This document shows, piece by piece, positions 5,011-24,000 of a stretch of 24,000 nt of DNA. The stretch is from assembly GCF_000743525.1 (NCBI RefSeq), contig NZ_JQGK01000018.1, forward strand, positions 23,273 through 47,272, given 5' to 3'. The DNA is from Sulfurospirillum sp. SCADC (GTDB lineage Bacteria > Campylobacterota > Campylobacteria > Campylobacterales > Sulfurospirillaceae). The translations under genes were made by a program, and so were the position numbers. Numbering within the stretch: position 1 is the stretch's first letter; every line of letters starts with the position of its first letter. The notes below the pieces were generated by a model. It ran no database searches. It saw only the letters and a program-made list of their open reading frames with translations, and was not told the origin of the DNA.

Positions 5011-5054
5011 CAGCAAAGGAAAATAGTTTATTAAATGAACCGACGCAACTCGTT

Positions 5055-5915: not shown

Positions 5916-5916
5916 G

Positions 5917-7352: not shown

Positions 7353-8232
7353 GTATATAATCTACTGCACTCATCGCATTTTTGGAGATCGGCTGAAGGG
7401 TTTTAAGCAGCAAAGAACCCTTTTTACATGTAAGGATAATTCCCTCCGGTTTGATCGCTTGAATAACGCTACCAAGGGTATTTTCTTTGTCATCATGGTA
7501 TTCAAGCTCTAGCAGTTTTAGCCCCGATTCCAAGTAAAGTCCTGGCCAAGGAGAGAGTGCTTTAAAGCGTGTCACTATCGCTTGAGCACTTTGCTCAAAA
7601 GAGACTAAACCATCCTCTTTTTTGATCTTTTTACAATGGGTTGCATTAGCACTGATTTGGGTTAAAGGCGAGATGGAATGAAAATTTTCAAGGGTCACAA
7701 CGGTTAGTTTTGCCGCGAGTGTAGCAAGGGCATCAAACAAAAGTGTCGAAGTGTGTTTAGATTCAATTTTAAGGTATGAAAATCCAAGCATTGCACCCGT
7801 ATCAAGCCCCTCTTCTATAAGCATTGAGGTCACGCCTGCATAGGTTTCATTGGCTAAAAGGGTCGATTGAATCGGACTTGCACCTCGGTATTTTGGAAGC
7901 AGCGAAGCGTGAAGGTTGATGCAAGGCGCAATAGCAAGAATTGCTTTAGGCAAAATCTGACCGTATGCTGCCACTACGATAAAATCAGGCTTTAAGGCAG
8001 CAATCTTGGCGTGAGCTTCATCTCCTCGCAGTGATTTTGGCTGATAAATTTCTACATGTAAACCTTGTTCAAACAACCATGCTTTTGTATGTGGAGGTGT
8101 CAGTACCTGTTTTCGCCCGACGGGTTTGTCTTCTTGCGTCACCAAAAGCACCACTTCAATGTCAGAGTTTTTTAGAAGTGCTTCTAAAATCGTCGTGGCA
8201 TAAGAGGGAGTCCCCATAAAAACAATGCGCAT
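7315..8232 (-). CDS. fmt: Methionyl-tRNA formyltransferase
   Basis: MRIVFMGTP... with the motif HASLLPKYRGASPIQ. I place the start at the ATG at 8232, preceded by ACGAAGGATTAAG (RBS), rather than the track's upstream alternative start at 8262. Confidence 0.9.
   Translation of the reverse strand: MRIVFMGTPSYATTILEALLKNSDIEVVLLVTQEDKPVGRKQVLTPPHTKAWLFEQGLHVEIYQPKSLRGDEAHAKIAALKPDFIVVAAYGQILPKAILAIAPCINLHASLLPKYRGASPIQSTLLANETYAGVTSMLIEEGLDTGAMLGFSYLKIESKHTSTLLFDALATLAAKLTVVTLENFHSISPLTQISANATHCKKIKKEDGLVSFEQSAQAIVTRFKALSPWPGLYLESGLKLLELEYHDDKENTLGSVIQAIKPEGIILTCKKGSLLLKTLQPISKNAMSAVDYIRGKRLNIGDTLV
7423..7434. repeat. Iterated palindrome copy TTTACATGTAAG (11/12)
   Basis: Inside fmt, encoded as L-T-C-K. 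Confidence 0.9.
8051..8062. repeat. Iterated palindrome copy TCTACATGTAAA (11/12)
   Basis: Inside fmt, encoded as L-H-V-E. Confidence 0.8.
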
Positions 8233-8301
8233 CTTAATCCTTCGTATAGGTTCATTCTTCACATAAATACTTCGGTTCCAACCCTATAAAAATGAAGAAG
8301 T

Positions 8302-9069
8302 TTACTTTTCACATGTAAAGAGTGTTCCACCTTTATGAACGCCCTCTAGCATATAACTTTTGACATCGCTTAAATCAAAACCATTCGCGATAAACATCGA
8401 TTTTTCACGCTCTAGCAAAAAGTCTGCCGCTTTGAGTTTGGTCACGATGCCGCCCGTTGCAAAAGCAAAATTGGCCGATTTCTCAACTTCCAATTCGCAA
8501 GGATCTATCGCATGGACAATTTTGCGCATCGTCGCATCGGCATGTTTGTGAGGGTCTTTGTCGTAGTAGCCATCAATATCGGAGAGTAAGATCAAAAGAT
8601 CCGCTCCAAAATAATACGCGACGCGTGAAGAGAGTTGATCGTTATCACCAAAAACAAGCTCTTCCGTTGCCGTCGCATCATTTTCGTTGATGATGGGGAG
8701 GATACCATTTTCAAGCAATGTGTCAATCGTACATTTCGCATGGTAACAGCGTTTTCGTGAGTCAAAATCATCCGCCGTTAAAAGCAGTTGCGCACCACTT
8801 TTCCCAAATTTTTCTAACTTTTTATTGTATGTAGCCATGAGTTGGGGTTGCCCAACAGCAGCAATGGCTTGGCGATTGTGCAATAATTTTTTATCCAACT
8901 TCAAAATGGAATAGCCAGCAGCCACAGCCCCCGAAGAGACTAAAATGACTTCATGCTTCTCCATCAGTGCGACTAAAAATTCCACCAAATTTAAAATGCG
9001 CTCTTTACATAAACGGTTTTGCTCGCTTAATACGTGCGTGCCAACCTTAACGACTACTCTTCTCATCAC
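8302..9069 (-). CDS. proB: Glutamate 5-kinase
   Basis: 255 aa with VVKVGTHVL and VSSGAVAAG, typical of the amino-acid kinase family. There is no PUA domain. It overlaps the obg 3' end by 23 nt. Confidence 0.9.
8308..8319. repeat. Iterated palindrome copy TTCACATGTAAA (11/12)
   Basis: Inside proB, in the last codons, encoded as F-T-C-E. Confidence 0.8.
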
Positions 9070-10153
9070 GAACCTTTGTTATAACATCGGATAGGGCATA
9101 CTTGATCGAATCAACGTTGATTTTAGAGACCGAAGAGAGTGGCATCACAAAAAAGGGCAATGCTCGCTCTCTCTCATGGACATCTTGACCATACGAATGC
9201 AAGTCTTCTCTCGTTTTATATTTATGCGTAAATTCATTGGCTTCAAGCCCTAAGAGTCTTAAAAATTGATCCACTTTTTCATTGATTTCATCGGGTGTTA
9301 AGGTGTCACAACGTGTCAGTGCAATCGCGTAATCACGGTGTGCTAATTTTTCAGAAAAGTTACGAAGTTCTTGTTGCAACGTGTAGTATTGCTCTTTAAG
9401 ATCACGGTAATTAGCAAGATCAATCATAAACAGTAAAAACTTCGTACGCTCAATATGGCGTAAGAACTCAATTCCTAGCCCTTTGCCTTCACTAGCTCCT
9501 CCAATAATACCTGGAATGTCCGCCATCACATACGTGCGGAAATCATCGGTGACAACCACACCCAGTTTGGGTGTTAACGTTGTAAATTCATAATTGGCAA
9601 TTTCAGGTTGTGCATTAGAGACAACTGAAATCAGCGTTGATTTGCCTACATTTGGAAACCCAACCAGTCCAACATCCGCGATCAATTTAAGCTCTAATTT
9701 AATCTCTTTCGTGATTCCAGGGCGACCAGGTTGTGCAAATTCAGGGCGTTGATTGGTCGAACTTTTAAAGTGAGTGTTTCCAAGCCCTCCCATGCCACCT
9801 TCTAAAAAGAGTTTTTTTTCACTGTCATCGACAAGATCTAAAAGCACCTCTTTCGTTTCAGCATCCAATACTTGGGTTCCAGGAGGAACAGATATAACAA
9901 GATGTTCTCCCATTTTGCCATACATTTTGCGTCCCATACCTGCTTCGCCATTTTTGGCTTTGAGGTGTTGGTTGTTTCTAAAATGCGAAAGCGTATGGGT
10001 ATTTTTATCCACTTCAAAATAGACATTGCCGCCACGACCGCCATCTCCACCATCAGGACCGCCTTGGATAACATGCTTTTCTCTACGGAAAGAGACGGAA
10101 CCTGGGCCTCCTTTTCCGGAGCTGAGTGTGAGTGATACATTGTCTATAAACAT
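9047..10153 (-). CDS. obg: GTPase Obg/CgtA
   Basis: 368 aa with the Obg-fold glycine-rich region [12 protein letters not shown] and the G1 motif GFPNVGKST. Confidence 0.95.
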
Positions 10154-10182
10154 CGTAAAAACCTTTTAATATAAAGAGTAAT

Positions 10183-10228
10183 AATACCTTTAATCATTAC
10201 ATGTAAACGTATAATCATTAGAGGTATT
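10183..10228. promoter_or_regulatory. 46-bp imperfect inverted repeat in the obg upstream region (function unknown)
   Basis: AATACCTTTAATCATTA (10183-10199) pairs with TAATCATTAGAGGTATT (10212-10228) at 15 of 17 positions. It contains two copies of the 9-mer TAATCATTA spaced 21 bp apart and overlaps one iterated-palindrome copy. Confidence 0.6.
10196..10207. repeat. Iterated palindrome copy ATTACATGTAAA (11/12)
   Basis: Intergenic, between the rpmA terminator and the obg start. Confidence 0.9.
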
Positions 10229-10241
10229 TTTGTTTTGAGGG

Positions 10242-10269
10242 AAAAAAGAAGGGTGGAGAAAACTCCACC
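10242..10269 (-). terminator. Rho-independent terminator after rpmA
   Basis: The minus strand reads TAA-TGTAAA-GGTGGAG-TTTT-CTCCACC-CTTCTTTTTT. This is a 7-bp GC-rich stem, a 4-nt loop and a U-tract, beginning 6 nt after the rpmA stop. Confidence 0.75.
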
Positions 10270-10275
10270 TTTACA

Positions 10276-10536
10276 TTATAAGCTTGCGGGGATAACAGAA
10301 ACTTTGTTTCTAATTTTATCTTTACGTTGGAATTGTACAAAACCATCGATTAATGCGTAGATCGTGTGATCAACACCGATGCCTACGTTATTTCCTACAT
10401 GTACTTTTGTTCCACGTTGACGAATAATAATATTGCCTGCGCGTACAAATTCACCACCAAATTTTTTAACACCCAGTCTACGTCCAGCTGAGTCTCTATT
10501 ATTCTGGGTACTTCCCTGACCTTTCTTGTGAGCCAT
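10276..10536 (-). CDS. rpmA: 50S ribosomal protein L27
   Basis: 86 aa starting [24 protein letters not shown], which is diagnostic of L27. Confidence 0.95.
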
Positions 10537-10566
10537 TGGTTACTCCTAATTTTTTGTATCTTAAAT

Positions 10567-10586
10567 CGGAGTTTTGAAAAACTCCG
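10567..10586. other. Perfect hairpin CGGAGTTTT-GA-AAAACTCCG in the rplU-rpmA spacer
   Basis: 9-bp inverted repeat read directly from the sequence. It lies 31 nt upstream of the rpmA start on the transcript and has no U-tract. Confidence 0.6.
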
Positions 10587-10590
10587 TTAC

Positions 10591-10665
10591 ACGCTTAAAA
10601 AGCAAGCTTTTCAAGCTACGTTAGCCACTACGGCACTAAAGCTAGCCAACTGAAGTTGGCAGAAT
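10591..10665. repeat. Structured intergenic element, copy A (homologous to 23724-23794)
   Basis: Both copies share the blocks ACGCTT, AAGCTT, AAGCTACG, CTAAAGCT and GGCAGAA in the same order. Copy A has two hairpins, at 10593-10616 and 10645-10660. Confidence 0.6.
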
Positions 10666-10677
10666 TCTATAGGTAGG

Positions 10678-10986
10678 TTAAGCTTTAATGCTTACAACTT
10701 TTACTCTAGTGTATTGTCTTCTAAAACCACGTTTGACTTTAGAGTCTTTACGTCTACGTTTTTTGAAAGTAATAACTTTTTTGTCTTTGCCTTCAGTAAC
10801 AACTTCGAGTTCTACTGTAGCACCATTGACGAATGGGGCACCCACTGTAAGTTCGCCGTTGTTCACAGCTAAAACTTCCGTCACTACTATTTTCTCTTTT
10901 GGCTGAGCGTCAAGTCTATCGACATTTAAGTAGTCGCCTTCTTGAACTTTGTACTGCTTCCCGCCATTTTTGATAATTGCATACAT
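10678..10986 (-). CDS. rplU: 50S ribosomal protein L21
   Basis: 102 aa starting [18 protein letters not shown], which is diagnostic of L21. The RBS AAGAAGGA lies 7 nt upstream. Confidence 0.95.
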
Positions 10987-11072
10987 GCGTATGTCCTTCT
11001 TGGGAGAGATTTATTTTGAGGTTTGGATTGTACCTAAACCTTCTTTAAGGTAATATTAAAGGAAAACGTCTT

Positions 11073-11103
11073 TAAGCCTAAAGGAGTCTTTCCAAAAGGC
11101 TTA
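11073..11103 (-). terminator. Weak candidate terminator after pyk
   Basis: On the minus strand TAAGCCT...AGGCTTA forms a stem with an internal loop, followed by AAGACGTTTTCC. The U-tract is short and the structure imperfect. Confidence 0.3.
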
Positions 11104-11121
11104 AATCGTCTTTAAATCTCC

Positions 11122-12567
11122 CTAGAGAACCATATCGGTGTAGTATTCAATCTGCGCTTTTTTCAAGATGCGAATAAAGTTGGTACTTCCTTCAACACCG
11201 GCTGGATAACCTGCTGTGACGATGTAGGTTTTTTCTTTATCAATCAAACCTCGCTCAATGCCCTTTTGAAGCGTTTTACCCAACATCATATTGAGATTAC
11301 TGGCTTCAATGTTCATGATCGGTTTAATGCCCCATGCAATGGTTAAAGAGCGGGCAACGCGTTCATCATGCGTCACGGCATAAATATCGGCACGAATTCG
11401 ATACCGTGCCAATTTTTTAGCCGATTTGCCTGAACTGGTCAGTGAAATCATCGCTTCAACACCCAAGCGATCTGCAAGACGTGCGGTGGATGAGGAGATA
11501 ATATCGGTCTCATCCAAGAAAGGATACACCTCAAATTTGCTGTACGGATAGATCGATTCAATCTCTTTAATCGTATTGGACATAACCTCAACCACATGGA
11601 TAGGATTGACCCCAATCGCACTCTCTTCGGAGAGCATAACCGCGTCCGTTCCATCCAAAACAGCGTTCGCAACGTCACTGATTTCAGCTCTGGTTGCCAT
11701 CTCTTTTTCTGCCATGGAAAGCAGCATTTGCGTCGCTGTAATAACGGGCTTAGACGCTGCATTGGCTTTGGCAATTAATCTTTTTTGAATGCTTGGAACT
11801 TTGTAGTACGGCACTTCAATACCAAGGTCTCCTCGTGCAACCATGATACCATCACTGACTTCTAAGATTTCATCAATTTTTTCAACGGCGTCAAATTTTT
11901 CAATTTTAGCAAAAATATGGGCACGGGATTTATGCTCTTTCAGAATTTTTCGTGCTTGTAAAATATCTTTGGCACTTTGAACAAAAGAGACCGCCACAAA
12001 ATCGACGCCGTGCTCAGCACCCCAGCGAAGATCTGCTTCATCTTTAGGCGTAATGACTTCAATGTTGATGATGGTATTGGGAAAATTCACCCCTTTGTTG
12101 GACGAGAGTTTCCCACTGTTTTCCACGGTGGTCACAATCTTATCGCCTATTTCAATCACTTTCGCGCGAATATTGCCATCGTAGAGATAGATATATTCAC
12201 CCTCTTTCAGCATATCTAAAATCTGCGGCTGGTTAATGCAGAGTTCATATCTGCCTTCTCCCGTTTTTTTACCAACGATTTGCTCTTTCGTAAAATGGAT
12301 TTGATCCCCTGACTCAAGGAAAAAGTCATCTTCGAGTTTTCCTACACGAATCTTTGGCCCACAAATATCTTGTAAAACACCCACTTTTTTCTGAACATTT
12401 TTTTCCGCTTCTCTGATTTTGGCAAGTGTACTGGCATGGTACTCATGGGTTCCATGGCTAAAATTGAGTCGAAATACATTGACACCTGCTCGAATTAACC
12501 CTTCTAAAATTTCTACACTATCACTTGCTGGTCCAACGGTTGCTAGGATTTTTGTCTTTTTATCCAT
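11122..12567 (-). CDS. pyk: Pyruvate kinase
   Basis: 481 aa with KILATVGPAS, NFSHG and MVARGDLGIEVP motifs. The RBS AAAAGGAAA lies upstream. Confidence 0.95.
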   Translation of the reverse strand: MDKKTKILATVGPASDSVEILEGLIRAGVNVFRLNFSHGTHEYHASTLAKIREAEKNVQKKVGVLQDICGPKIRVGKLEDDFFLESGDQIHFTKEQIVGKKTGEGRYELCINQPQILDMLKEGEYIYLYDGNIRAKVIEIGDKIVTTVENSGKLSSNKGVNFPNTIINIEVITPKDEADLRWGAEHGVDFVAVSFVQSAKDILQARKILKEHKSRAHIFAKIEKFDAVEKIDEILEVSDGIMVARGDLGIEVPYYKVPSIQKRLIAKANAASKPVITATQMLLSMAEKEMATRAEISDVANAVLDGTDAVMLSEESAIGVNPIHVVEVMSNTIKEIESIYPYSKFEVYPFLDETDIISSSTARLADRLGVEAMISLTSSGKSAKKLARYRIRADIYAVTHDERVARSLTIAWGIKPIMNIEASNLNMMLGKTLQKGIERGLIDKEKTYIVTAGYPAGVEGSTNFIRILKKAQIEYYTDMVL

Positions 12568-12619
12568 CTCTGTTTCCTTTTTTATAATGAGTTCTATTCT
12601 ATCACTTTAGTGTTACAAA

Positions 12620-12628
12620 ATTATATCA
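12620..12628 (-). promoter_or_regulatory. Candidate extended -10 (TGATATAAT) for pyk
   Basis: The minus strand reads ...CTTACATGTAAGGCTTATGATATAATTTTG..., about 50 nt upstream of the pyk ATG. Confidence 0.5.
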
Positions 12629-12633
12629 TAAGC

Positions 12634-12645
12634 CTTACATGTAAG
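12634..12645. repeat. Iterated palindrome copy CTTACATGTAAG (10/12, itself a perfect 12-bp palindrome)
   Basis: Intergenic, 5 nt upstream of the candidate pyk extended -10. Confidence 0.9.
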
Positions 12646-12793
12646 CTTTAAAAAGATGCTGAAGTTTTACACATCTAATCAATCTTGCATCACGTCTATC
12701 AATCGGCTTTAGACAATTTAAGAGAGCACTTTTTGCATTAAATTGATCCATACAAGAGCACTACCTTAATTCAATAAAATTAAAAGCTTTCTG

Positions 12794-12802
12794 TGGTATT
12801 AT
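12794..12802 (+). promoter_or_regulatory. Candidate extended -10 (TGGTATTAT) for the CheX-like gene
   Basis: CTGTGGTATTATCAC lies about 45 nt upstream of the ATG at 12847. This is resemblance only. Confidence 0.4.
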
Positions 12803-12846
12803 CACTACTTATTATCCTAATCAACACATACGGTTAACATAACACC

Positions 12847-13899
12847 ATGACAAACAGCATTCAACACTCTATTTTAATTTTTAACTATAACGAAGCGGTT
12901 CATGAGAATCGTAACAGTGTCTTATACAATACGATTATAGGACAACAGGCAATGCTCAAAGACAAAGGGATCAAAGGTGTACTTGTCTCCTTAAAAGATA
13001 CCCCTTATTCTCCTTTAACCAAAGAAGATCCCAACCTTGCGAATTTAGTCAAACAGCTTGAAAAACTAAGCCATAGGATTGATCTTCCCGTCGCCATTGG
13101 TGATTATAAACGCGATACGTTTGCCTATCTTAAAAAATTTAGTGCCAATACCTCGGTGAAACTCTTTCAAAACATTAATACAGCGATTCTCTTTTTTAAC
13201 CCAAAAGCCTTCAAAAAAGAGCTCGATGTCCTGATCTACGATGAAGATAAAGAAAATGCGGACAAAATTGCAATGGAACTCGGGAAAATGGGCTATTCCA
13301 TCGTTCATGCACGCAATGTAGAAGATTTTAAGATCAAAGCTTCTGCTAAAAAATACGATATGACCATCACGCACACGGCCATTAACCAAAATAGTACTAA
13401 AACACAGGCATCACAAGGGTTGGGACTTTCAAAACAGCTGGTGATGAATCTTCCTGTCTTTATTGACACCGCTGTGAATTCACTTGTGACGATTACAGGA
13501 CTTGAAGCGCAAAAAATCAAGCATGAAATCAGACCGTTTAATGAAAAAATTCCTCCTCATGTGATCATTGCGGCGATGAAATTTAAAGGTGATATTAGTG
13601 GTGTTTTCTTCCTTGTTTTTCCACGAGAGCTTGCCCTTGTAGCACTTGAAGCAATGTTAGGGGAGAGTCTGGAAGCCGATGATACGGCGTCAATTGTCGA
13701 TGGCGTTGCTGAATTTTGCAATATCATCACAGGATCAGCAAAAGTGACGTTCTCGGGTAAAAATCTTAAAGTTCTTTTTGAACTTCCTAAAACCTACCTA
13801 TCTGTGCAAGTTGCCCTGAGCGATACGTTAGGTTCCAATGGCGTTTGGATCGACATGCAACTGGATGAAAAACCTTTTTACATGTTTATTACCAAGTAA
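12847..13899 (+). CDS. CheX/CheC-family phosphatase-like protein with a roughly 200-aa N-terminal extension (includes a degenerate receiver-like segment)
   Basis: 350 aa. The C-terminal part (about 13444-13896) aligns by eye with CheX (GDISGVFFLVFPRELALVALEAMLGE) and carries DGVAEFCN-x21-P at 13699, matching the D/S-x3-E-x2-N...P active-site pattern. Residues 127-177 (VLIYDEDKENADKIAMELGKMGYSIVHA...) resemble the first half of a receiver domain but lack the phospho-Asp position. No Shine-Dalgarno sequence precedes the ATG, so the start is uncertain. Confidence 0.6.
   Translation: MTNSIQHSILIFNYNEAVHENRNSVLYNTIIGQQAMLKDKGIKGVLVSLKDTPYSPLTKEDPNLANLVKQLEKLSHRIDLPVAIGDYKRDTFAYLKKFSANTSVKLFQNINTAILFFNPKAFKKELDVLIYDEDKENADKIAMELGKMGYSIVHARNVEDFKIKASAKKYDMTITHTAINQNSTKTQASQGLGLSKQLVMNLPVFIDTAVNSLVTITGLEAQKIKHEIRPFNEKIPPHVIIAAMKFKGDISGVFFLVFPRELALVALEAMLGESLEADDTASIVDGVAEFCNIITGSAKVTFSGKNLKVLFELPKTYLSVQVALSDTLGSNGVWIDMQLDEKPFYMFITK
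13877..13888. repeat. Degenerate iterated palindrome TTTACATGTTTA (10/12)
   Basis: Inside the CheX-like gene, encoded as F-Y-M-F. This is the only copy in the third reading phase, and its TAA half is broken. Confidence 0.6.
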
Positions 13900-15051: not shown

Positions 15052-15115
15052 ACATAGATCCTTTGACTTTGTATAGCGGTATAGTACTACTTTTTACGCC
15101 TATTTTGCAAAAATG

Positions 15116-15565
15116 TCACGCTAAGATCAATCGCATCGGTTGCATCAAAGAATCGACAAACCCCAGCCGTTTGTAGAAGCGCTGTGCCGCATGATTGTGC
15201 GTGTCCGTTAAAAGAGTAATGCGTTTACATGTAAGCTTTTGAGCATGTTCTATGGCTGCCTCAACCAACCGTGTTCCGCATTTTTCTCCTCGAAATTGAG
15301 GCGCAATAATCATATCTTCCAAAAAGGCTACTTTTCCGCCAAGTGCTGTGCTGATCGTCCATAAAAGGCTTACCATTCCGATGATCTCACCCTCCTTTTT
15401 AAGCACAAAAATGGTTCCTATCGTGGCATCTTCTAGGATCATTTTAAGACCTGCGCGTTGAGCCTCAGGATGTGGCGTAAATTCAGCCTCTTGAGAAAAA
15501 AGGAGGGTTAATAAATCAATTAAAGACTCTATATCAGAGCTTTTTGCCTCTTCAACGCTAAACAT
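15116..15565 (-). CDS. GNAT family N-acetyltransferase
   Basis: 149 aa with an acetyl-CoA binding pattern (FRGEKCGTRLVEAAIEHA) and a ...AAQRFYKRLGF tail typical of GNAT. The RBS AGGAG lies upstream. Confidence 0.85.
   Translation of the reverse strand: MFSVEEAKSSDIESLIDLLTLLFSQEAEFTPHPEAQRAGLKMILEDATIGTIFVLKKEGEIIGMVSLLWTISTALGGKVAFLEDMIIAPQFRGEKCGTRLVEAAIEHAQKLTCKRITLLTDTHNHAAQRFYKRLGFVDSLMQPMRLILA
15224..15235. repeat. Iterated palindrome copy TTTACATGTAAG (11/12)
   Basis: Inside the GNAT gene, encoded as L-T-C-K. Confidence 0.9.
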
Positions 15566-15615
15566 ACCACTCCTTTTTTGATCTGTATTGTAACATAGGA
15601 ACCCTTTTTGCTTGT

Positions 15616-15621
15616 TATAAT
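15616..15621 (+). promoter_or_regulatory. Candidate -10 (TATAAT) for ORF 15646
   Basis: TTGTTATAATTAC lies 25 nt upstream of the ATG. A strong RBS AAGGAG at 15634-15639 sits 6 nt before the ATG. Confidence 0.45.
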
Positions 15622-15645
15622 TACTGATATGATAAGGAGTTTTTC

Positions 15646-16128
15646 ATGACCATTGAAGAGAGTAAAAACAGCGTCAATCAATCGTTATTGAGCACACTCG
15701 CCAAAGTTACCACAAAGAATACGACTACGGAAGATTCGTTTGCCAGTATTTTAGCAAGCCAATTAAATGGAAGCAGCAGTTCAAGTGATGAATCCACAGC
15801 TTCAACGGCTGCAACCGAATCCAATGCTGCCGTTGAGGCGTTTAAAGAAGCTCTAACGTCCAAAGGGGCGCTTCAATTCTACCAAGAGTACAATCAAGAG
15901 AAAATTGAGCAACTGATGGAAGAGAAAAAAGCGGAACTTGAAGATAAATTGGGGCTGAGTGCAGACAGTGTGCCACCCTTAAGCGGCGAAGATCGAGAAA
16001 ATACGCTCTCTATGCTAGACATGATGCTGGATGCTTACCGTAAACAACTGCAAGAGAAGATGCAAGCTGAGGATGAGCTTGAGCAAGAGACGACAATGCT
16101 CAATACGTTTTTACAAGACCTTGCTTAG
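15646..16128 (+). CDS. Hypothetical acidic protein (Ser/Thr-rich N-terminal half, coiled-coil-like C-terminal half)
   Basis: 160 aa with an excellent RBS and a plausible promoter. It has no TM segment or signal peptide and I recognise no family motif. Confidence 0.65.
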   Translation: MTIEESKNSVNQSLLSTLAKVTTKNTTTEDSFASILASQLNGSSSSSDESTASTAATESNAAVEAFKEALTSKGALQFYQEYNQEKIEQLMEEKKAELEDKLGLSADSVPPLSGEDRENTLSMLDMMLDAYRKQLQEKMQAEDELEQETTMLNTFLQDLA

Positions 16129-16850
16129 CGTTTTTGCAAAATTAAGATGGTTTTATCAGGCTCGTCACCAAAGAGTGTGACGGGTTTGGTAGAACAGAGT
16201 TTAAATGCCTTGAGTTTTTTAAAAAACGAGAGTGGGTGAAAGTATTGGGTGATGACTCCCTCTTCTTTGCGGTAAAGCTTTCCCTCTTTTTCAAACAAAA
16301 CGATCTTTGTGACCAGCTCATGATTTTCAAAGGTTGCATCCACGCATAAAAACTGATCTTCCTTCTCTTGGCACATCACGCCTTCTGCCACGCCTTCAAA
16401 ACCATACAAGGTATTGACATCGCAGACAAAATAGCCATTTTGAGGCAGCACACGTGCAACCGCTTCTAAGAAAGCGTTTATCTCGGAAGGGGCAATGTAA
16501 TTTAGCACATCGGCAATCGCTACAACGCACTCAAACGAAGCCTCTTCCCATTCGTCTAGCTCTTTGGTACTCGCTTCCACCCCTAAAGCTCGTGCACGCT
16601 CGATCATGGCGACACTTCGATCAATTCCGCACGCACTGATCTGCTCATCTTTAAGATGCACAAGAAATCTGCCATTGCCACATCCCACATCCAAAATACG
16701 CTTTACATGTAAAGATTTGAGTAAACGCAAATAGGTCTGGTAGAGGGTTTCATACTGGGCATCAAAACCGATCAGCGATTCGATTTTGGCGTAAAGATCA
16801 AGAGGAGTTATCATGGGTACACTTTGGTTGGGGCTTTTTGAAAGCCCCAT
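16125..16850 (-). CDS. Class I SAM-dependent methyltransferase (substrate unknown)
   Basis: 241 aa with motif I ILDVGCGNGRF. The start is ambiguous between the ATG at 16850, which lies inside a hairpin, and the ATG at 16814 (MITPLDLY...). Neither has a clear Shine-Dalgarno sequence. Confidence 0.85.
   Translation of the reverse strand: MGLSKSPNQSVPMITPLDLYAKIESLIGFDAQYETLYQTYLRLLKSLHVKRILDVGCGNGRFLVHLKDEQISACGIDRSVAMIERARALGVEASTKELDEWEEASFECVVAIADVLNYIAPSEINAFLEAVARVLPQNGYFVCDVNTLYGFEGVAEGVMCQEKEDQFLCVDATFENHELVTKIVLFEKEGKLYRKEEGVITQYFHPLSFFKKLKAFKLCSTKPVTLFGDEPDKTILILQKR
16702..16713. repeat. Iterated palindrome copy TTTACATGTAAA (12/12; 14-bp palindrome CTTTACATGTAAAG)
   Basis: Inside the methyltransferase gene, encoded as L-H-V-K. 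Confidence 0.95.
16830..16848. other. GC-rich hairpin GGGGCTTT-TTG-AAAGCCCC just after the mqo stop
   Basis: 8-bp perfect stem. Coordinates are anchored to the ORF-track positions of the mqo stop (16857) and the MTase ATG (16850). No U-tract follows on either strand. Confidence 0.5.
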
Positions 16851-16856
16851 GAGATT

Positions 16857-18197
16857 TTAGTCAACGAGTTCGTGTTTAAAGCGTGCTTCATCAAATGTCT
16901 TGCCAAGGTATTCGCACACGATTCTAACATCGCGACGCGCATTTCCAAGACAACTGGTTGCACCTGGACTTGGCGTCATGTTAAAGATAATGCCCGTTCC
17001 TGGGTTGATGCTCGCTTCACCTAGCATCAATTTTTGCTCTGTTTTATTAATCACTTGAGGTCTGACACCGCCAAAGTGATGCGCATATTCAATGTCGTCT
17101 AGTTGCAACGAAGGAACAATTTTGCGTGCATCTTTGATGAAAAGCTCTTTACCAAATTTAGGAAGCTCAAACAGAACGTTTCGTAAGATGTAATTACGAA
17201 TATCGCTGTCTTTCATCAAATCATAAAAAACTTTCGCCACTTTACCATCAAATTGCAATGTTTGCCAAAAATCAAGATACGTTCCACCCGTGTAACGCTC
17301 TAATTTTGGCATCACAAGGGCTGTGGGTCCAAAACGGGTACAGCCATCGGCTAAAATGTCCGGATCGCCATGCAGTGCCGCAAAAGGAAGTTTAGGATGC
17401 TGCACCATATAGACTTTACCATTGAGCATTTTTTTCTTGGTCATATAAAAACTGCCACCCACCGGTAAACAGGCAAAATCAAGTCCATAGCCCATTTCAT
17501 GCGCTAAATAGAGTGAATGAGCGCCCGCATCGACCACGACAAAATCAGCCGTAAACGTATGATCTTTGGTCATCACCACGTGCATATCACCCAGTTTAGT
17601 AATGTTGGTTACTTGAGAGTTCAAAAAGACATCCGCAACTTTACCTTCGATTTTTTGAGCTTCAGAAACCAAGCTTTCACTCATTTGCCCAAAATCAACG
17701 GTACTAAACTCTCCGCCTTCCACGCCCACACCAATGACATTATCAAGACGCTCTTTGCCCTCAGCATCGTAAATAAGCTTTGGCTCAATCTGTGCAAGTT
17801 TCTCTTTATCAAAGACTTCAAGATAGGGGTACAGCTCTTTAAACTCTTCATAACGCTTTTGCATATACGCAACTTCGGTATCACCCACACCGATTGCCAT
17901 TTTTTGATGCGCAAATAAAAACTTACCCTCGTGTCCATGCGCAACACAATACTTTGCGATCATGCCTGCAGTCTCTTTGACTTTTTTCGCTTTTTCTAGA
18001 GTATAGTTGGTTTCTATGTCACCACAGTGAATGGTTTGAGAATTGGACGTTCCAGCAGAATTGAGTTTTGCTAAACGCTCATATTTTTCGACCAGCGCGA
18101 TACGCTTAATGTCTGTATATTTTGCAAGCTCATAAAACAGAGCTGCACCTGAGATTCCGCCACCGACGACCAAGACGTCATAGTGATTTTTTGTCAT
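16857..18197 (-). CDS. mqo: Malate:quinone oxidoreductase (FAD-dependent, epsilonproteobacterial type)
   Basis: Carries the FAD motif DVLVVGGGISGAAL plus NSQTIHCGDIETNYTLEKAKKV and FNMTPSPGATSCL, which I recognise from Helicobacter and Campylobacter Mqo. I prefer the ATG at 18197, with AGGAAG 8 nt upstream, over the track's TTG at 18206. Confidence 0.88.
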   Translation of the reverse strand: MTKNHYDVLVVGGGISGAALFYELAKYTDIKRIALVEKYERLAKLNSAGTSNSQTIHCGDIETNYTLEKAKKVKETAGMIAKYCVAHGHEGKFLFAHQKMAIGVGDTEVAYMQKRYEEFKELYPYLEVFDKEKLAQIEPKLIYDAEGKERLDNVIGVGVEGGEFSTVDFGQMSESLVSEAQKIEGKVADVFLNSQVTNITKLGDMHVVMTKDHTFTADFVVVDAGAHSLYLAHEMGYGLDFACLPVGGSFYMTKKKMLNGKVYMVQHPKLPFAALHGDPDILADGCTRFGPTALVMPKLERYTGGTYLDFWQTLQFDGKVAKVFYDLMKDSDIRNYILRNVLFELPKFGKELFIKDARKIVPSLQLDDIEYAHHFGGVRPQVINKTEQKLMLGEASINPGTGIIFNMTPSPGATSCLGNARRDVRIVCEYLGKTFDEARFKHELVD

Positions 18198-18239
18198 GCT
18201 AAACAACTTCCTACTCTAAGATTTTAGGGTGTGACATTC

Positions 18240-18269
18240 TATTATAAAAACTTTAAAGTTTTTATAATA
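18240..18269. promoter_or_regulatory. Perfect 30-bp palindrome carrying a TATAAT on each strand (probable mqo promoter, possible divergent antisense promoter)
   Basis: TATTATAAAAACTTTAAAGTTTTTATAATA equals its own reverse complement. The minus-strand TATAAT (18246-18241) is preceded by CTTTAAAGTTTTT, an AT-rich periodic upstream pattern like Campylobacter sigma-70 promoters, about 45 nt upstream of the mqo ATG. Confidence 0.5.
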
Positions 18270-18274
18270 AATTG

Positions 18275-18646
18275 TTACTTTACTGCAATAGCTTCGATCT
18301 CAACCAACGCATTTTTAGGCAATGTTTTGACACCCACGGTGCTGCGTGCAGGTTTGTGCTCTTTAAAAAATGCGCCATACACCTCATTGACTTTTGCAAA
18401 GTCGTCCATATTGGCTAAAAAAATGGTCGTTTTAACCACTTTTTTCAGACCACTACCGGCTTCTTTAAGCACGGCTTTGAGGTTTTCTAACACTTGGGTG
18501 GCTTGTGCTTCCACATCGCCTTCTAAAAAAGTACCATCGGGCTTAAGCGCGATTTGCCCAGAGGTAAACACCATATCGTTTACCACAATCGCTTGCGAAT
18601 ACGGACCAATGGCAGCGGGTGCATTGGTTGTCGAGACTATTTTCAT
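18275..18646 (-). CDS. ridA: RidA/YjgF family reactive-intermediate deaminase
   Basis: 123 aa with [11 protein letters not shown] and [23 protein letters not shown], typical of RidA. Its start overlaps the dapE stop (ATGA). Confidence 0.9.
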
Positions 18647-19755
18647 ACATCTTCCTTTTTGAAATTTTCAATGACAGATTTAAACACTTGGACGAGTGAT
18701 TCAACTTCGCTCATCGGACAACACTCATTGGGTGCGTGAATCGTATCGTTTACGACGCCACACTCAATCGTAGCAACCCCAAAAGCGCCAAAAAATCGCG
18801 CATCACTCGTTCCACCAGCCGTGGAGAGTTTGGGTGCTTTTGCGTTTACATGTAAAAGTGCTTTTTCAACAGCTTTGACAATCATAGAGTCTTTACATGT
18901 AACAAACGGATGCGCACTTTCACTCAAGTTGAGCGTAAAATCTAAGCCTTGCAGTAACGCTTCCACATAGGTACGAATTTTTGTACTATCGGTTTTGGTT
19001 GAGTTGCGTACATTAAACATAATCTTGAGATTACCAGGGGTAACATTGCTCACTTCCATACCACCACGAATGTCCGTGATAATGATCTGCGAAGAGGCAA
19101 AAAATTCGTCACCCTCATCCAAATAATGTCCTGCAAGTTGAGGAAGCAGAGGGGCTATTTGATGCACGGGATTGATGGTTTTTTCAGGATACGCCGCATG
19201 ACCTTGTTTACCCGTGATCTCAATCACCCCGTTAATGGAGCCACGACGCCCTACTTTAATCGCATCGCCAAAAACCTTCTCAGAAGTCGGTTCTGCCACG
19301 ATGACGTAGTCGGGTAAGAAAGAGCGACGCTCTAACTCTTTGATCACTTCAATCGTTCCATGCTTCGCATCACCCTCTTCATCGCTGGTTAAGATGGCAG
19401 AGAGGGTTCCATTAAAATGCGTCGTCTCGCGCAGCGCTTGCACGAATGCACAGACACCACTTTTCATATCTTGAGCACCTCTGGCATAGACAACACCCTC
19501 TTTAACGATAGGCTCAAACGGGTCACTTTCCCAACCATGCCCCGGTGGAACCACGTCAATATGCCCTGCAAAACAGAGGTGTGGGCCTTTTCCAAAACGT
19601 TTATATAAAAAAAGATTTTTAGTGTTTTCGACATTGAGCTCAATGACCTCAAAGTCAGTGAGGTACGCTTTAATGAAGGTGAAAGCACCGCCGTCATCGG
19701 GGGTGACTGAGACAAAGCGTAAAAGTTTTAAAAAAAGTTCGTGTGTTTTCAGCAT
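18643..19755 (-). CDS. dapE: Succinyl-diaminopimelate desuccinylase (M20 peptidase)
   Basis: 370 aa with M20 metal-binding motifs [19 protein letters not shown] and SDEEG, and a DapE-like length. Confidence 0.88.
18845..18856. repeat. Iterated palindrome copy TTTACATGTAAA (12/12)
   Basis: Inside dapE, encoded as L-H-V-N. Confidence 0.95.
18892..18903. repeat. Iterated palindrome copy TTTACATGTAAC (11/12)
   Basis: Inside dapE, encoded as T-C-K, 47 bp from the previous copy. Confidence 0.9.
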
Positions 19756-19829
19756 GATTCCTCTATTGTAAAAGAGTATTCTTTAGAGTTTATACTCATT
19801 TCTTGGTTATGATTCAATATCAAGTTTAT

Positions 19830-22031
19830 TTAAAGCTTGATCAATGTGGCACCATAACCACCCATATTGATCGGTGCATCGCCATACGAAACTAAAGAAG
19901 GATAGCTGCTTAAAAAGGTTCGCACCGCATAGGCGAGTTTTCCCGTTCCAATGCCATGATAAACCAACACCTCATCAAAGCCGCTCATCAGTGCGTCACT
20001 TAAAAATTTATCGAGTTTTTCAACCGCTTCATCGGCTCTGAGTCCATGCAGATCCAAAATCATTGAACCACTGGGTGTCTCTTTGGAGATCACCACACCT
20101 GATTTGTGCACTTTGGGTTGGTTGCCACTGCGTTTGAGTTTGGAGAGGGGAACACGAAGCGTAATGCCGTCGCACTCGATGGTCGCTTCTTCTTTTTTGA
20201 TGCTTTTAATCACCCCTTTAGAGCTTCCGTATTTGATTTTATCGTTTACATGTAAAGGTTCTGCTTTTTGATCGGGAATCACTTTACGTGTCTCTTGATG
20301 CAACTGGTTCGCTTTGTTGAGCAAGCGGTGCGACTCTTTGGTATCCGAACTCTTGATCGCCTTTTTGGCTTCGCCAATCGCTTGGTTGAACTCTTTGGAC
20401 ATTTTAGAGTACGCATGATCAAACTCTTCTCGCACGCGCTCTTTTTCATCGCGTAACGACTCTTTGAGTTTTTCCACTTCATGCAGTCTCGTATCAAGCT
20501 CTTCGGAGGTTTTGCGCATCTCAAGCTCTAAGTCGATGTTTTTTTGAATGAGCTCATTGAGTTTTTCTTTATCTTCGCCGTACAAAACACGCGCTTCGGC
20601 GACCAATGACTGCGGAATGCCATAACGAAGTGCCGTCTCAAACGCATAACTCCTGCCAATCGTCCCTTTTAAAAAGCCATACGTCGGACGCTCACTCTTT
20701 TCATCGTAAATCGCCGCTAACAGTTCGACTTCAGGGTGCGTGGCAAGCAAAGAGGCTAAGCGTTTATGGTGCGTGGTGATGACGATTTTCATCTCTTTAT
20801 CGATAAGCTTTTCGATCATCACTTTAAAGAGATTCGCCGCTTCATCGGCGTCTGTTCCAAGTTCGATCTCATCGACACCAATGAGTGCTACTTTTTTACC
20901 AAAGAGTTTACTAAACTCACTCATCCGCCCTGCAAAAGTGGAGATGTCATTTTTAACATTTTGCGGATCATCCAAAATCGCAAACACCTCTTTGAACGAA
21001 CCAATGCTCGAATGTTTCGCATCAATGCGCATCGGAAGAAGGTATTTACTCAAAATCGCCGCCGTCAAAATGGATTTAAGCAGCATCGTTTTACCACCGG
21101 CATTTACACCCGTGATCATCAAGACCTGTTTGCTAAAATCAATCGTAATCGGTTTGGGATTGGCAAGGGCAGGATGCGCAAAGTTTTCAAGTTTGATGGC
21201 ATTGGTTTTGGAGGGAAGCACAAACTCCATATCTTTTTCTCTGGCGTACGCGACTCTGGCATAGTACGCATCAAAGCGGTCAAACTCTTTGTTCACAAAC
21301 CCTAAAAATTTGAGCTGTTTGGTAAACACCGACGAGATTTGCTTCGCGTACTTGTACACCAACTCTTCTTTGCGGTCGATTAGTTCACTCTCACGACTCG
21401 CCAACTTTGCAAGCGCTTCGGGTACGACATAGAAAAAACCGCTGCTACTGCGCCCGATGACATTGCCTTTGAGGACATGGTTAAACCCACCACGTACCAA
21501 AAGTGCCTCTTGATTGTTGATGTAGTGAATTTGTTTATCGGCAAGGTAAAGAGCGATTTTTTCGGTCGAGATCAGACGGCGAAGCGTGCTGTTCATCTCC
21601 TCTTTGACCATTTTAAGGCTTTGAGCGATGCTCGCAAACTGTTCATCTACGCTGGATTTGAGCTCACCTTTTTCATCAAAATAAGCGCAAATTTGCGCGA
21701 CTTCGGCAGGGATGAGAATGCGCTCCATCCATTCGCCAAGGCTCTGGTCGTTCAGCATATGTTTAAGATACTGCATATAATTGATGATCTGTACAAACGC
21801 AAAAATCTCACTAAGACGCAAAATGCCCATTTTACTCAGGTGCATCAGTGCCACATCCAAAGAGGGAACTTCCGGCAAAGGCTTCAAGCGATCGCGTGTG
21901 AGCAGTTCATGGATCAATTTATAATGAAGATTCGCATCGCCCTCCATAAACAGAGGTTTTTCGCGCGCTAAAAAGTGTTTAAATCCGGTCGCATAATCGA
22001 CCAGATCGAGTTTTGAAAAAAGCTTTTCCAT
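19830..22031 (-). CDS. mutS2: Endonuclease MutS2 (MutS domain V ATPase plus C-terminal Smr domain)
   Basis: 733 aa with Walker A ITGVNAGGKT, a long coiled-coil linker and a C-terminal Smr motif LDLHGLRADEA...VYHGIGTGKL. Confidence 0.9.
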   Translation of the reverse strand: MEKLFSKLDLVDYATGFKHFLAREKPLFMEGDANLHYKLIHELLTRDRLKPLPEVPSLDVALMHLSKMGILRLSEIFAFVQIINYMQYLKHMLNDQSLGEWMERILIPAEVAQICAYFDEKGELKSSVDEQFASIAQSLKMVKEEMNSTLRRLISTEKIALYLADKQIHYINNQEALLVRGGFNHVLKGNVIGRSSSGFFYVVPEALAKLASRESELIDRKEELVYKYAKQISSVFTKQLKFLGFVNKEFDRFDAYYARVAYAREKDMEFVLPSKTNAIKLENFAHPALANPKPITIDFSKQVLMITGVNAGGKTMLLKSILTAAILSKYLLPMRIDAKHSSIGSFKEVFAILDDPQNVKNDISTFAGRMSEFSKLFGKKVALIGVDEIELGTDADEAANLFKVMIEKLIDKEMKIVITTHHKRLASLLATHPEVELLAAIYDEKSERPTYGFLKGTIGRSYAFETALRYGIPQSLVAEARVLYGEDKEKLNELIQKNIDLELEMRKTSEELDTRLHEVEKLKESLRDEKERVREEFDHAYSKMSKEFNQAIGEAKKAIKSSDTKESHRLLNKANQLHQETRKVIPDQKAEPLHVNDKIKYGSSKGVIKSIKKEEATIECDGITLRVPLSKLKRSGNQPKVHKSGVVISKETPSGSMILDLHGLRADEAVEKLDKFLSDALMSGFDEVLVYHGIGTGKLAYAVRTFLSSYPSLVSYGDAPINMGGYGATLIKL
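20245..20256. repeat. Iterated palindrome copy TTTACATGTAAA (12/12)
   Basis: Inside mutS2, encoded as L-H-V-N. Confidence 0.95.
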
Positions 22032-22038
22032 GAGGGCG

Positions 22039-22392
22039 TTACTTCACCTTTTCCAGTTTACATGTAGCCATATCGATCACAATACCTTTATCATTTGGGT
22101 TCTTGTCATTTGCAATAAAACTAAGCGTTCCACTCACAAACACAAACGTCTCCAACGAGATTTCACGCCCGTCGCAATAGAGTGTTTTACCCTGTTTAAA
22201 CGCACTGATCATCATGCGATTTGATTCACTGTTCTCACGATTATGGGCTTCATACCACCACGCAATCCCAATGAAAACCACCAGAAAAAGAAAAAGTCCT
22301 ATTTTTGCTTTGTGAGAGAATGTACTCTTTTTAGCATAGAGCACCGAAACAACCAGAAGTACCACCGCTAAAAAAAGTAAAAATTGCATCAC
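22039..22392 (-). CDS. Small hypothetical membrane protein (two predicted TM helices)
   Basis: 117 aa with hydrophobic stretches FLLFLAVVLLVVSVLY and IGLFLFLVVFIGIAWWY. The GTG or ATG start overlaps the murC stop (ATGTGATG), and the stop is 7 nt before the mutS2 start. Confidence 0.6.
   Translation of the reverse strand: MMQFLLFLAVVLLVVSVLYAKKSTFSHKAKIGLFLFLVVFIGIAWWYEAHNRENSESNRMMISAFKQGKTLYCDGREISLETFVFVSGTLSFIANDKNPNDKGIVIDMATCKLEKVK
22057..22068. repeat. Iterated palindrome copy TTTACATGTAGC (10/12)
   Basis: Inside the small membrane-protein ORF, encoded as A-T-C-K. Confidence 0.75.
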
Positions 22393-23699
22393 ATGGCTCC
22401 TCGAAGCTGATAGGTTATGTCCCCTGCGCCAAAACTGATCACCAACCCTTCATCAAAAATATGTTGGTTCGCTTCGCAAGGAAATATCTCTATACTATCA
22501 TTATTTCGGTAAACACGCGGTGGGAAAAGTGGCTTATAGCGTGCGAACTCTTTTTCAAAGTCGATAAAAACCTCTTTTTCCCCTGCACGCCACACAGGTA
22601 AAATCACGAGCTGATCGACCCCTTCAAAGCAGTTGACAAAACTTTGCAAATTATCAACCGTGCGTGAATATTTGTGTGGTTGCCAGATGGCAGTGATCTT
22701 TTTTAGCCCCATCAGAGCAGCATATTGTGTCGCAGACTCCAGTGTTGCTTTGATCTCGGTGGGGTGATGCCCGTAATCATCAATCAGTGCAAAGTTTTCA
22801 TGTTTGCTCAAAAGATCAAAACGTTTTTTGATGCCTTTGTACTGTTTGAGTTTCTCACGCGCCGTTTCCACATCCATCTCATGCAAGCTCGCCAAAATTG
22901 CCAGTGACGCATCCAGCGCCATATGAGCCCCTATTCCCCACACCTCAAAACAACCCAAATCTTTGAGCACAAAGGAGGTAAAAGGCTCACCATCACGCAT
23001 CACGGTTTTAATGTCGCTGATGTCACGACTTGGATAGAGACGATCAGCTTCAAGCTCCGTAAGCGTGCTTAAAAAAGGATCTTCCGCGTTAATGACGCGA
23101 ATCTTCGCACTCTCCAAAAAGTGTCTGTAAGCCCCATAAAATCGGTCATAATCGTAGTTATAATACTCCATATGTTCCGGCTCTGCGTTGGTGACAATCG
23201 CGATGTAGGGATTGGAATTTAAAAAGCTCGCATCACTCTCATCGGCTTCAAAAATGACATTATTGCCCTCTTTGTAGTACATGTTTGAGCCATACTGCTT
23301 GCTCTCCGCACCAATGACCAAAGAGCCCTCGACCATCGAAGCGAGCATCGCACTGGTCGTACTTTTGCCATGCGCTCCACAGACGGAGAAAACACGTCTG
23401 TTTTTTAAGATAAACAAAAGCGCCTCACGACGAGGCATGATCGTCATTCCTTTTTCACGTGCACGTACAAGTTCGATGTTATCGGGTTTAATGACCGCAG
23501 AAAAAACGACCAAATCTTGGTCAGTAATGCACGCAGGATCGTGTGGAATATGCACAGGAATGCCCATCTCTTCGAGCCCTGCGGTAATTTTGCTTGCTTT
23601 CACATCGGAGCCTGTGATTTCGTAGCCCTCTTGTTTTAAATATTTAGCTAAGGCAGAAAGCCCAATGCCACCAATGCCTACAAAATGAACTTTTTTCAA
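22389..23699 (-). CDS. murC: UDP-N-acetylmuramate--L-alanine ligase
   Basis: 436 aa with VHFVGIGGIGLSALA and the Mur ligase P-loop GAHGKSTT. The start is a TTG at 23699, with AAGGA 6 nt upstream. Confidence 0.93.
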   Translation of the reverse strand: MKKVHFVGIGGIGLSALAKYLKQEGYEITGSDVKASKITAGLEEMGIPVHIPHDPACITDQDLVVFSAVIKPDNIELVRAREKGMTIMPRREALLFILKNRRVFSVCGAHGKSTTSAMLASMVEGSLVIGAESKQYGSNMYYKEGNNVIFEADESDASFLNSNPYIAIVTNAEPEHMEYYNYDYDRFYGAYRHFLESAKIRVINAEDPFLSTLTELEADRLYPSRDISDIKTVMRDGEPFTSFVLKDLGCFEVWGIGAHMALDASLAILASLHEMDVETAREKLKQYKGIKKRFDLLSKHENFALIDDYGHHPTEIKATLESATQYAALMGLKKITAIWQPHKYSRTVDNLQSFVNCFEGVDQLVILPVWRAGEKEVFIDFEKEFARYKPLFPPRVYRNNDSIEIFPCEANQHIFDEGLVISFGAGDITYQLRGAM

Positions 23700-23723
23700 C
23701 CAATATCCTTATCTATTTTTTAT

Positions 23724-23794
23724 ACGCTTTCCAAGCTAAGCTTGAAAAGCTACGCTGCGCTGTGCGCTAAAGCTTGCCTTTTGCAAGGCAGAAA
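23724..23794. repeat. Structured intergenic element, copy B (homologous to 10591-10665)
   Basis: Has the same ordered conserved blocks as copy A. Hairpins at 23726-23750 and 23775-23790 occupy the positions of the copy A hairpins but use different stem sequences. Confidence 0.6.
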
Positions 23795-23810
23795 TGGTAC
23801 CGCTTTACTC

Positions 23811-23822
23811 TTTACATGTAAA
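23811..23822. repeat. Iterated palindrome copy TTTACATGTAAA (12/12; 14-bp palindrome CTTTACATGTAAAG)
   Basis: Intergenic, 12 nt after the aminotransferase stop and next to structured element copy B. Confidence 0.95.
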
Positions 23823-23833
23823 GCTACGCTTTT

Positions 23834-24000
23834 CTAGAAAGAGGCGATAACCTCTTTGATCTCTTTTAAGATCTGCTCTGTTTTTTCACTGTTTTCCACA
23901 AGTGCGATACGCACATAATGCTCGCCGATGCCGCCGCGTCCTAGAAAACGACCCGGTAGTACTTTGATATTTTTTTGCTCATACAGTTTACATGTAAAGA
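23834..24000 (-). CDS. PLP-dependent aminotransferase (class I/II), C-terminal 55 codons only
   Basis: Manual reverse translation gives ...FTCKLYEQKNIKVLPGRFLGRGGIGEHYVRIALVENSEKTEQILKEIKEVIASF*, stop at 23834-23836. The PG..F......YVRIALV pattern is typical of aminotransferase C-termini. A DapC-like role is a guess based on proximity to dapE. Confidence 0.6.
   Translation of the reverse strand, partial: FTCKLYEQKNIKVLPGRFLGRGGIGEHYVRIALVENSEKTEQILKEIKEVIASF
23987..23998. repeat. Iterated palindrome copy TTTACATGTAAA (12/12)
   Basis: Inside the aminotransferase gene, encoded as F-T-C-K. Confidence 0.95.

Follow-up and report, generated by a model that had tools for sequence, protein, structure and literature searches.

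The stretch analysed here is a 24,000-nucleotide segment of Sulfurospirillum sp. SCADC (contig NZ_JQGK01000018.1, positions 23,273 to 47,272), called the window in the following. It is studded with a 10-letter palindrome, TTACATGTAA (the word), of which it contains 10 exact and 5 one-mismatch copies, compared to 0.94 expected from shuffled sequences. A first-pass annotation of the window had proposed that copies inside genes are read in only two of the three phases, as Leu-His-Val (LHV) or as Thr-Cys-Lys (TCK), that the third, stop-creating phase is avoided or disrupted, and that a force acting on the DNA thereby imposes rare residues on unrelated proteins. To place the copies, they were assigned to open reading frames (ORFs), with gene names backed by Pfam.

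In the Thr-Cys phase, exact copies lie in fmt (7424..7433, ILTCKK; kept in the congeneric genomes G017 and G006), in a GNAT acetyltransferase gene (15225..15234, LTCKR), in the M20 peptidase gene dapE (18893..18902, VTCKD) and in a gene that runs off the end of the window (23988..23997). Those in the LHV phase are located in the gene of a class-I S-adenosylmethionine (SAM) methyltransferase (16703..16712, SLHVK), again in dapE, 47 bp from the other copy (18846..18855, LLHVN), and in mutS2 (20246..20255, PLHVN). Exact intergenic copies are found upstream of obg (10197..10206, kept in G017 and G006 and mutated in a third congener, G010), upstream of the pyruvate kinase gene (12635..12644) and at 23812..23821, the latter with the full 14-mer flanks. 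One-mismatch copies are CTACATGTAA at a variable position of fmt (8052..8061, LHV phase, GLHVE), TCACATGTAA at the proB C-terminus (8309..8318, Thr-Cys phase, FTCEK followed by the stop; exact in G017), TTACATGTAG in a 117-aa ORF (22058..22067, Thr-Cys phase, ATCKL) and a copy in parA (6450..6459, LHV phase, TLHVA). A CheX-like gene carries the two-mismatch word TTACATGTTT in the stop phase (13878..13887, FYMF), which is probably a chance match.

The source genome, G000 (2.66 Mb, 41.6% GC, 38 contigs), was searched with a gene set from a custom ORF-based caller (2,557 genes, 91% coding), which is crude and has unreliable start codons. This genome carries the word 1,312 times in exact form, where about 6 occurrences are expected from base composition, and these copies account for 1,312 of the 1,863 ACATGT sites. 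The strict 8-mer core, TACATGTA, occurs 1,520 times, its reversed control word 38 times. The word extends to the consensus C-T-TTACATGTAA-A-G, and no sequence is conserved beyond 14 bp. It is also sharply defined: variants with one mismatch within the inner 8 bases do not exceed background, and one-base deviations cluster at the outer positions (23-60 copies per variant, compared to 0-19 at inner positions), as in the cyanobacterial highly iterated palindrome HIP1. Copies are spread over the whole chromosome at near-exponential spacing with a mean of 1.97 kb, an abundance typical of uptake sequences. The left and right flanks vary independently, with a complementarity equal to chance expectation. 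A hairpin or terminator was thus rejected, also in view of the lack of Rfam or tRNA matches, and so was a structured repeat of the repetitive extragenic palindrome, bacterial interspersed mosaic element or miniature inverted-repeat transposable element type, as 64% of the copies are genic, their flanks show no compensatory pairing and Rfam gave no match. We found no description of TTACATGTAA in these bacteria in the literature searched.

The two-phase pattern seen in the window, where the peptides quoted in the first-pass annotation are all correct, holds throughout the genome. Tabulation of the 1,312 exact copies yielded 536 in the L-H-V phase, 280 in the T-C-(K/N) phase, 473 intergenic copies and not one internal copy in the stop phase. 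Since any exact copy read in the third phase would bring a TAA into frame, this absence is a logical necessity and carries no statistical signal; as evidence of avoidance it is trivial. The 22 exact copies that do stand in the stop phase each supply the TAA stop of their own gene, and TACATGTAA is the commonest 9-nucleotide gene end in G000 (24 genes). The copy at 13877 that had been put forward as disrupted has two mismatches, and two-mismatch words in the stop phase are at background (258 in G000, 233 in a word-poor congener), so that it cannot be called a disrupted copy. Still, a disrupted class does exist among the near-copies: one-off copies in the stop phase number 47 in G000 and 18 in the word-poor congener, and 28 of the 47 are TTACATGTAC (Tyr-Met-Tyr), the closest legal spelling.

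Whether the unit under constraint is the DNA or the peptide can be read from the codons. LHV is found 690 times in G000, compared to 124 expected from amino-acid frequencies, and 622 of these tripeptides (90%) are spelled TTA-CAT-GTA, for which codon usage predicts 1.7%. TCK is found 273 times (35 expected), 236 times (86%) as ACA-TGT-AAA. The codon that follows is affected as well: of the lysines after LHV, 157 are encoded by AAG and 96 by AAA, whereas 83% of lysine codons overall are AAA, a shift in line with the G at the flank of the extended word. Asparagine in this position is written AAC in 126 cases and AAT in 5. Among near-cognate tripeptides, LHI (0.64-fold) and SCK (0.39-fold) are depleted. 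The alternative is that LHV or TCK is a functional peptide common to several proteins, or that the counts are a chance effect of composition. It would have the strong over-representation of both tripeptides in its favour. However, it would have to account for the near-exclusive use of one codon set for each, for the 36% of copies that are intergenic, for the depletion of the reversed tripeptides and for the fact that dinucleotide-preserving shuffles never attain the copy count observed. We regard this explanation as scarcely credible and already contradicted; the peptide motif was rejected on the codon statistics. The earlier proposal that the target of the force is the DNA word, and no peptide, is strongly supported by these statistics together with the conserved sites and the fossil tripeptides of a word-losing congener described below.

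The window was aligned with the syntenic regions of five congeners (G017, G006, G010, G020 and G013). Exact window copies are kept at 8 of 8 sites in G017 and 6 of 7 in G006, both word-rich, compared to 18% and 12% for control 10-mers. The word thus combines an over-represented core with conserved orthologous sites, as HIP1-type words do. In G010, 0 of 8 copies are kept, in G020 1 of 6 and in G013 0 of 3. The alignments at word sites are mostly ungapped, with small gaps in a few word-poor rows. This bears on the notion that a mobile element has left the word behind by inserting it whole, for instance as a target-site or excision scar. The high copy number and the presence of copies both in genes and between them would suit such an origin, but orthologs differ by substitutions and mostly lack 10-14-bp insertions, nothing is conserved past 14 bp, and the sites are stable between species. 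We consider insertion very unlikely, and the alignments already contradict it.

The same alignments, extended to more distant relatives for some genes, were used to ask how far the word has changed the proteins. At some window sites the tripeptide is specific to the lineage: the cysteine of VTCKD in dapE is Ser in G010 and G020 and Ala in G013, and the LHV of mutS2 is Val-Val-Gly in G010, G020 and G006; dapE Ser to Cys, mutS2 Val to His and fmt-68 count as lineage-specific changes. At others it was there beforehand. Distant orthologs that already carry the residues had been named in the first-pass annotation as a refutation, and at some sites they exist. Relatives as remote as Campylobacter, Sulfurovum and Arcobacter conserve the Cys-Lys of fmt-278, where Thr alone is new; in GNAT-112 Cys-Lys-Arg is common to all congeners, the only relatives compared, and again only Thr is new. 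LHVK of the SAM methyltransferase is already present in word-poor congeners with other codons, LLHV of dapE pre-exists with other codons, and the parA peptide at 6450 is conserved across the family and reads LHL in Campylobacter.

For a genome-wide view we compared G000 with G010, a complete genome and the only word-poor one compared in full. The two have 1,987 orthologs in common (median identity 87.7%), and 496 G000 genes are missing in G010. Of 690 orthologous genic sites, 12 carry the exact word in G010, where the mean number of mismatches is 3.30, compared to 2.18 for control 10-mers. The residues at these sites are shared with G010 for 52% of His, 54% of Cys, 73% of Leu, 54% of Val and 46% of Thr; these figures are an unpolarised comparison of two genomes. 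The forcing of rare residues is only half supported: it is borne out at dapE, mutS2 and fmt-68, but about half of the His and Cys residues are shared with the word-poor congener, and the first-pass annotation overstates the extent of the effect. The word therefore mostly takes hold at places where the protein sequence comes close to spelling it anyway, and in genes of low conservation.

G010 also retains traces of a former word. LHV is found there 230 times (115 expected) and TCK 67 times (35 expected), a two-fold excess, with the codons decayed to forms such as TTACATGTT, TTACATGTC and TTGCATGT-; the reversed tripeptides are under expectation. We therefore conclude that the G010 lineage once held the word and then lost it. 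In a mutS2 tree, a single-gene tree that is partly unresolved, G010, G020, G058 and G001 fall within a clade of word-rich species. A search of G010 for an alternative hyper-abundant word found none. The GC content is 37.6% in word-poor G010 and 41.6% in word-rich G000.

Within G000 the density of copies depends steeply on protein conservation, falling about 9-fold from 0.70 copies/kb in genes that are 70-80% identical to their G010 homolog to 0.075 copies/kb in those with at least 95% identity. Genes without a G010 homolog have 0.23 copies/kb. Accessory genes and low-GC islands are poor in copies, and several of the longest word-free stretches are such islands. Absence from acquired DNA, a bias in reading frame and a preference for poorly conserved genes are the features by which uptake sequences are recognised. 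Between genes the density is highest in convergent intervals (4.2 copies/kb), followed by tandem (1.9) and divergent ones (1.3), compared to 0.35 in genes, and there is an excess of copies 2-8 nucleotides past stop codons. The first part of the window (1-7423) belongs to a 10-kb stretch without an exact copy (G000:C18:20729-30695) that holds the ATP synthase operon (atpG, atpA, atpH and others), parB, parA and birA, which fits the drop in density with protein conservation. A different intergenic repeat of about 75 nucleotides, with many AAGCTT-like units, occurs at window positions 10588-10665 and 23715-23794. Its two copies show 77% similarity, and each congener searched has dozens of matching places; the element is neither a tRNA nor in Rfam.

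A census of 61 Sulfurospirillaceae genomes with the 8-mer core, compared to the reversed control word (17-74 copies), showed that the core is abundant in nearly all of them, with up to 1,727 copies and many intermediate counts. Truly low counts were found in G010 (109), G020 (132), G051 (27) and G052 (28). Elsewhere in the order, the core is abundant in two genomes only, both of one other family (608 and 611 copies). Counts of the 12-mer and 14-mer had suggested a patchy trait at genus level. This was partly wrong, because flank preferences differ between lineages, and the 8-mer core shows several of the supposedly word-poor genomes to be word-rich. The ratio of 14-mer to core varies by lineage, which points to such differing preferences. 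The word thus fills most Sulfurospirillaceae genomes, with several losses.

The copies have a further property that extends far beyond the 14 bp of conserved letters. Around them, A+T content rises and falls with a period of 11.2 bp in fixed register with the dyad, with peaks at 10.5, 22, 33, 44.5 and 56 bp, equally in genic and intergenic copies. The signal has an amplitude of 0.076 over 8-64 bp, loses half of it about every 56 bp and can be detected to about 250 bp. Among 444 frequent 8-mers, the 11 best-phased are all derived from the word (0.06-0.076); the next one reaches 0.037, and the median is 0.019. Neighbouring copies are in helical register (R=0.27-0.33, n=136), and there are 73 close pairs 12-50 bp apart, where 24 are expected, clustering at 20-24 bp or two helical turns. 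One of these close pairs is that of dapE in the window, at 47 bp. At the orthologous sites in G010 phasing is present at about one third of the amplitude; at former word sites in that genome the GC-rich troughs of the 11.2-bp pattern are filled with A/T. We take the dyad-locked phasing to be a real property of the copies. Genome-wide, 11.2-bp periodicity is twice as strong in G000 as in G010 and persists in G000 when 300 bp on either side of each copy are masked. It matches the ~11-bp "structural code" known in bacteria (PMC4132750).

These observations suggest a second explanation, in which the word would be the dyad of a helically phased, intrinsically curved DNA site, selected for a bending or wrapping protein or for the apex of a supercoil. 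A nucleoid protein or a topoisomerase would be a candidate binder, and the coding phases would still be a by-product. The oscillation locked to the dyad, the rank of the word-derived 8-mers, the register between neighbours and the fading of the phasing at G010 sites all speak for such a role, as do the alternation of pyrimidines and purines in the core, which gives flexible steps, and the link of HIP1 to nucleoid structure (PMC5861425). However, the periodicity that remains after masking and the fact that other A-tract boundary words reach half the phasing of the word mean that part of the signal is generic; uptake signal sequences (USS) carry phased AT tracts, too, and no candidate protein was found. 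We regard a structural site as possible, but not as the likelier explanation. Bolder, and in our opinion rather doubtful, is the idea that DNA shape forms a genome-wide code with the palindrome as its dyad, and that this code positions a machine for wrapping DNA or handling supercoils. About 1,300 to 1,700 sites per genome would then each lie at the centre of up to roughly 500 bp of 11.2-bp A/T-G/C alternation, strongly enough to override the choice of amino acids, and word and phasing would decay together once the machine was lost. If true, bacteria would have a counterpart to positioning sequences, and HIP-type words in general might find their explanation in it.

The centre of the word, CATG, directs attention to DNA methylation. 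G000 has eleven DNA methylases, most of which are low-GC two-gene inserts, and only an orphan D12-class gene looks resident (G000:C5:49452-50435). It matches PF02086, has native GC content and is syntenic in six word-rich genomes, and homologs at about 50% identity are named NlaIII methylase. Judged by sequence, the enzyme belongs to the NlaIII/HpyI family, with CATG as the predicted specificity. In G003 an IceA-type (NlaIII-like) nuclease gene adjoins two tandem NlaIII-family methylase genes (G003:C21:107323-114277), which would make up a full restriction-modification system; G000 has the orphan. All 15 genus members with an enzyme of the orphan's clade, class A, are core-rich (1,073-1,727 cores). 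In the crown clade of the genus the methylase is present wherever the word is abundant. In G010 the syntenic site (G000:C5:49371-50618 compared to G010:2364387-2365097) is occupied by about 500 bp of unrelated DNA without any remnant of the methylase, and a genome scan of G020, G058 and G001 detected no homolog. Within the genus, one clade has lost the word and the gene together. The unrelated DNA in G010 holds a small Lys/Ser-rich ORF with a hydrophobic N-terminus.

This pattern would fit methylation-linked biased repair. According to Elhai's model for HIP1, transferred to the present case, the orphan CATG methylase and mismatch correction would turn near-copies into the word, which would be a neutral product. 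Apart from the class A orphan in core-rich genus members, its replacement in G010, its absence from the scans of the other three genomes and the IceA-type nuclease beside its relatives, the model is favoured by the near absence of one-off copies and by the position of the deviations that do occur, which concentrate at the outer bases just as those of HIP1 do (PMC4390886). At family level, however, the methylase, judged by presence and absence, looks neither necessary for the word, as G019 and G060 (more than 1,100 cores each) and G049 have the word but no homolog, nor sufficient, as G051 and G052 have a homolog but no word. CATG occurs about 10,400 times in G000, and only 1,520 of these sites are in core context. 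On the repair side, G000 encodes a 982-aa protein with a MutS_I domain (G000:C7:106693-109641, minus strand), and neither a Vsr nor a MutL was found in this genome, an unusual combination for Campylobacterota. The MutS_I protein is 92% identical in G010 and, being kept there, does not discriminate between the genomes. We consider repair bias improbable as the maintaining process.

Taken together, the reading in two phases is very probably a by-product of the upkeep, site by site and at the level of double-stranded DNA, of a lineage-specific, highly iterated palindrome. Copies arise by point substitution and not by insertion, at places where the sequence is already close to the word. Translation then filters the new copies, and the third phase survives only as the stop of the gene itself or as TAC-ATG-TAC. 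A changed residue appears to be associated with roughly a third to a half of the copies. Where upkeep stops, word and codons decay and fossil tripeptides stay behind, as in G010 and G020, whose fossils show that they once had the word, and perhaps in G051 and G052. We infer that a two-fold-symmetric protein reads the word.

As to the process behind the upkeep, our leading guess, which we hold at somewhat less than an even chance, is a self-DNA mark that would act in natural transformation or recombination; we place it ahead of the structural site, which in turn ranks above methylation-linked repair bias. The guess is modelled on DNA-uptake sequences, on the methylated RAATTY of Campylobacter jejuni and on recent HIP1 work, and it implies that the word would accumulate partly by drive. 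ComEC and a secretin of about 510 aa are universal in the family. Several points have to be set against this explanation. ComEC and the secretin are present in word-less genomes as well, and therefore nothing ties the word to uptake. Neither a reader protein nor a candidate uptake receptor was found and, to our knowledge, natural competence of Sulfurospirillum has not been documented. One-off copies are far rarer than for USS, which fits selection or repair at each site better than a weak uptake bias. The apparent dispensability and insufficiency of the methylase count here, too, and the helical phasing of the copies points equally to a structural role.

Irrespective of the process, the word belongs in one class with HIP1 and the DNA-uptake sequences, of which it is a new case. 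For USS and DNA uptake sequences (DUS), a doubling of the encoded tripeptides, frame bias, preference for poorly conserved genes and absence from recently acquired genes have been described (Findlay & Redfield 2009, PMC2817400). The word resembles them in its density of about one copy per 2 kb, in that about a third of the copies are intergenic and most common downstream of genes, in reading-frame bias, inflated tripeptides, preference for poorly conserved genes and absence from recently acquired DNA, in lineage-specific flank preferences and in helically spaced AT tracts beside the core. It differs from them in being a perfect palindrome, in inflating its tripeptides 5-8-fold instead of about 2-fold, in the near absence of one-off copies and in that relatives without the word possess the uptake genes, too.

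With HIP1 (GCGATCGC) and the alternate cyanobacterial palindromes the word has in common a palindromic octamer core that is 40-200 times more frequent than expected, orthologous sites that are conserved in and between genes, deviations at the outer bases, lineages with loss and a centre that is the site of an orphan-methylase family (GATC in HIP1, CATG in the word). It differs in being AT-rich, in its occurrence in another phylum, in its effective length of 10-14 bp and in that the methylase association fails at family level. We know of no report that HIP1 is locked to an 11-bp helical periodicity. Explanations of HIP1 are divided between repair, nucleoid structure and, lately, transformation (PMC4390886, PMC5861425, PMC13756078, bioRxiv 10.1101/2024.09.10.611283). 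A precedent closer to Sulfurospirillum is the methylated RAATTY uptake mark of C. jejuni with its methylase CtsM (Beauchamp 2017 as cited in PMC10046745). Going by that account, it shares with the word the phylum, a palindromic site and an orphan N6-adenine methylase, and it serves the discrimination of self-DNA at uptake; unlike the word, RAATTY is a 6-mer that base composition alone makes common, and not a long, hyper-enriched word.

The frame pattern itself is ordinary: it is expected of any maintained word that contains TAA, and it parallels published work on uptake sequences. What the word offers beyond this is a quantified case of a force at the DNA level that rewrites proteins, in which two tripeptides are inflated 5-8-fold and, at word sites, His and Cys differ from the word-poor congener at roughly 200-300 residues. 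The case is located in a second phylum and in cultured genera (our genome set includes the type genomes of S. barnesii and S. deleyianum), and natural loss lineages are available for comparison. Due to these properties, the 30-year-old question of the purpose of highly iterated palindromes becomes approachable outside the cyanobacteria, and the locking to the helical periodicity provides a new lead.

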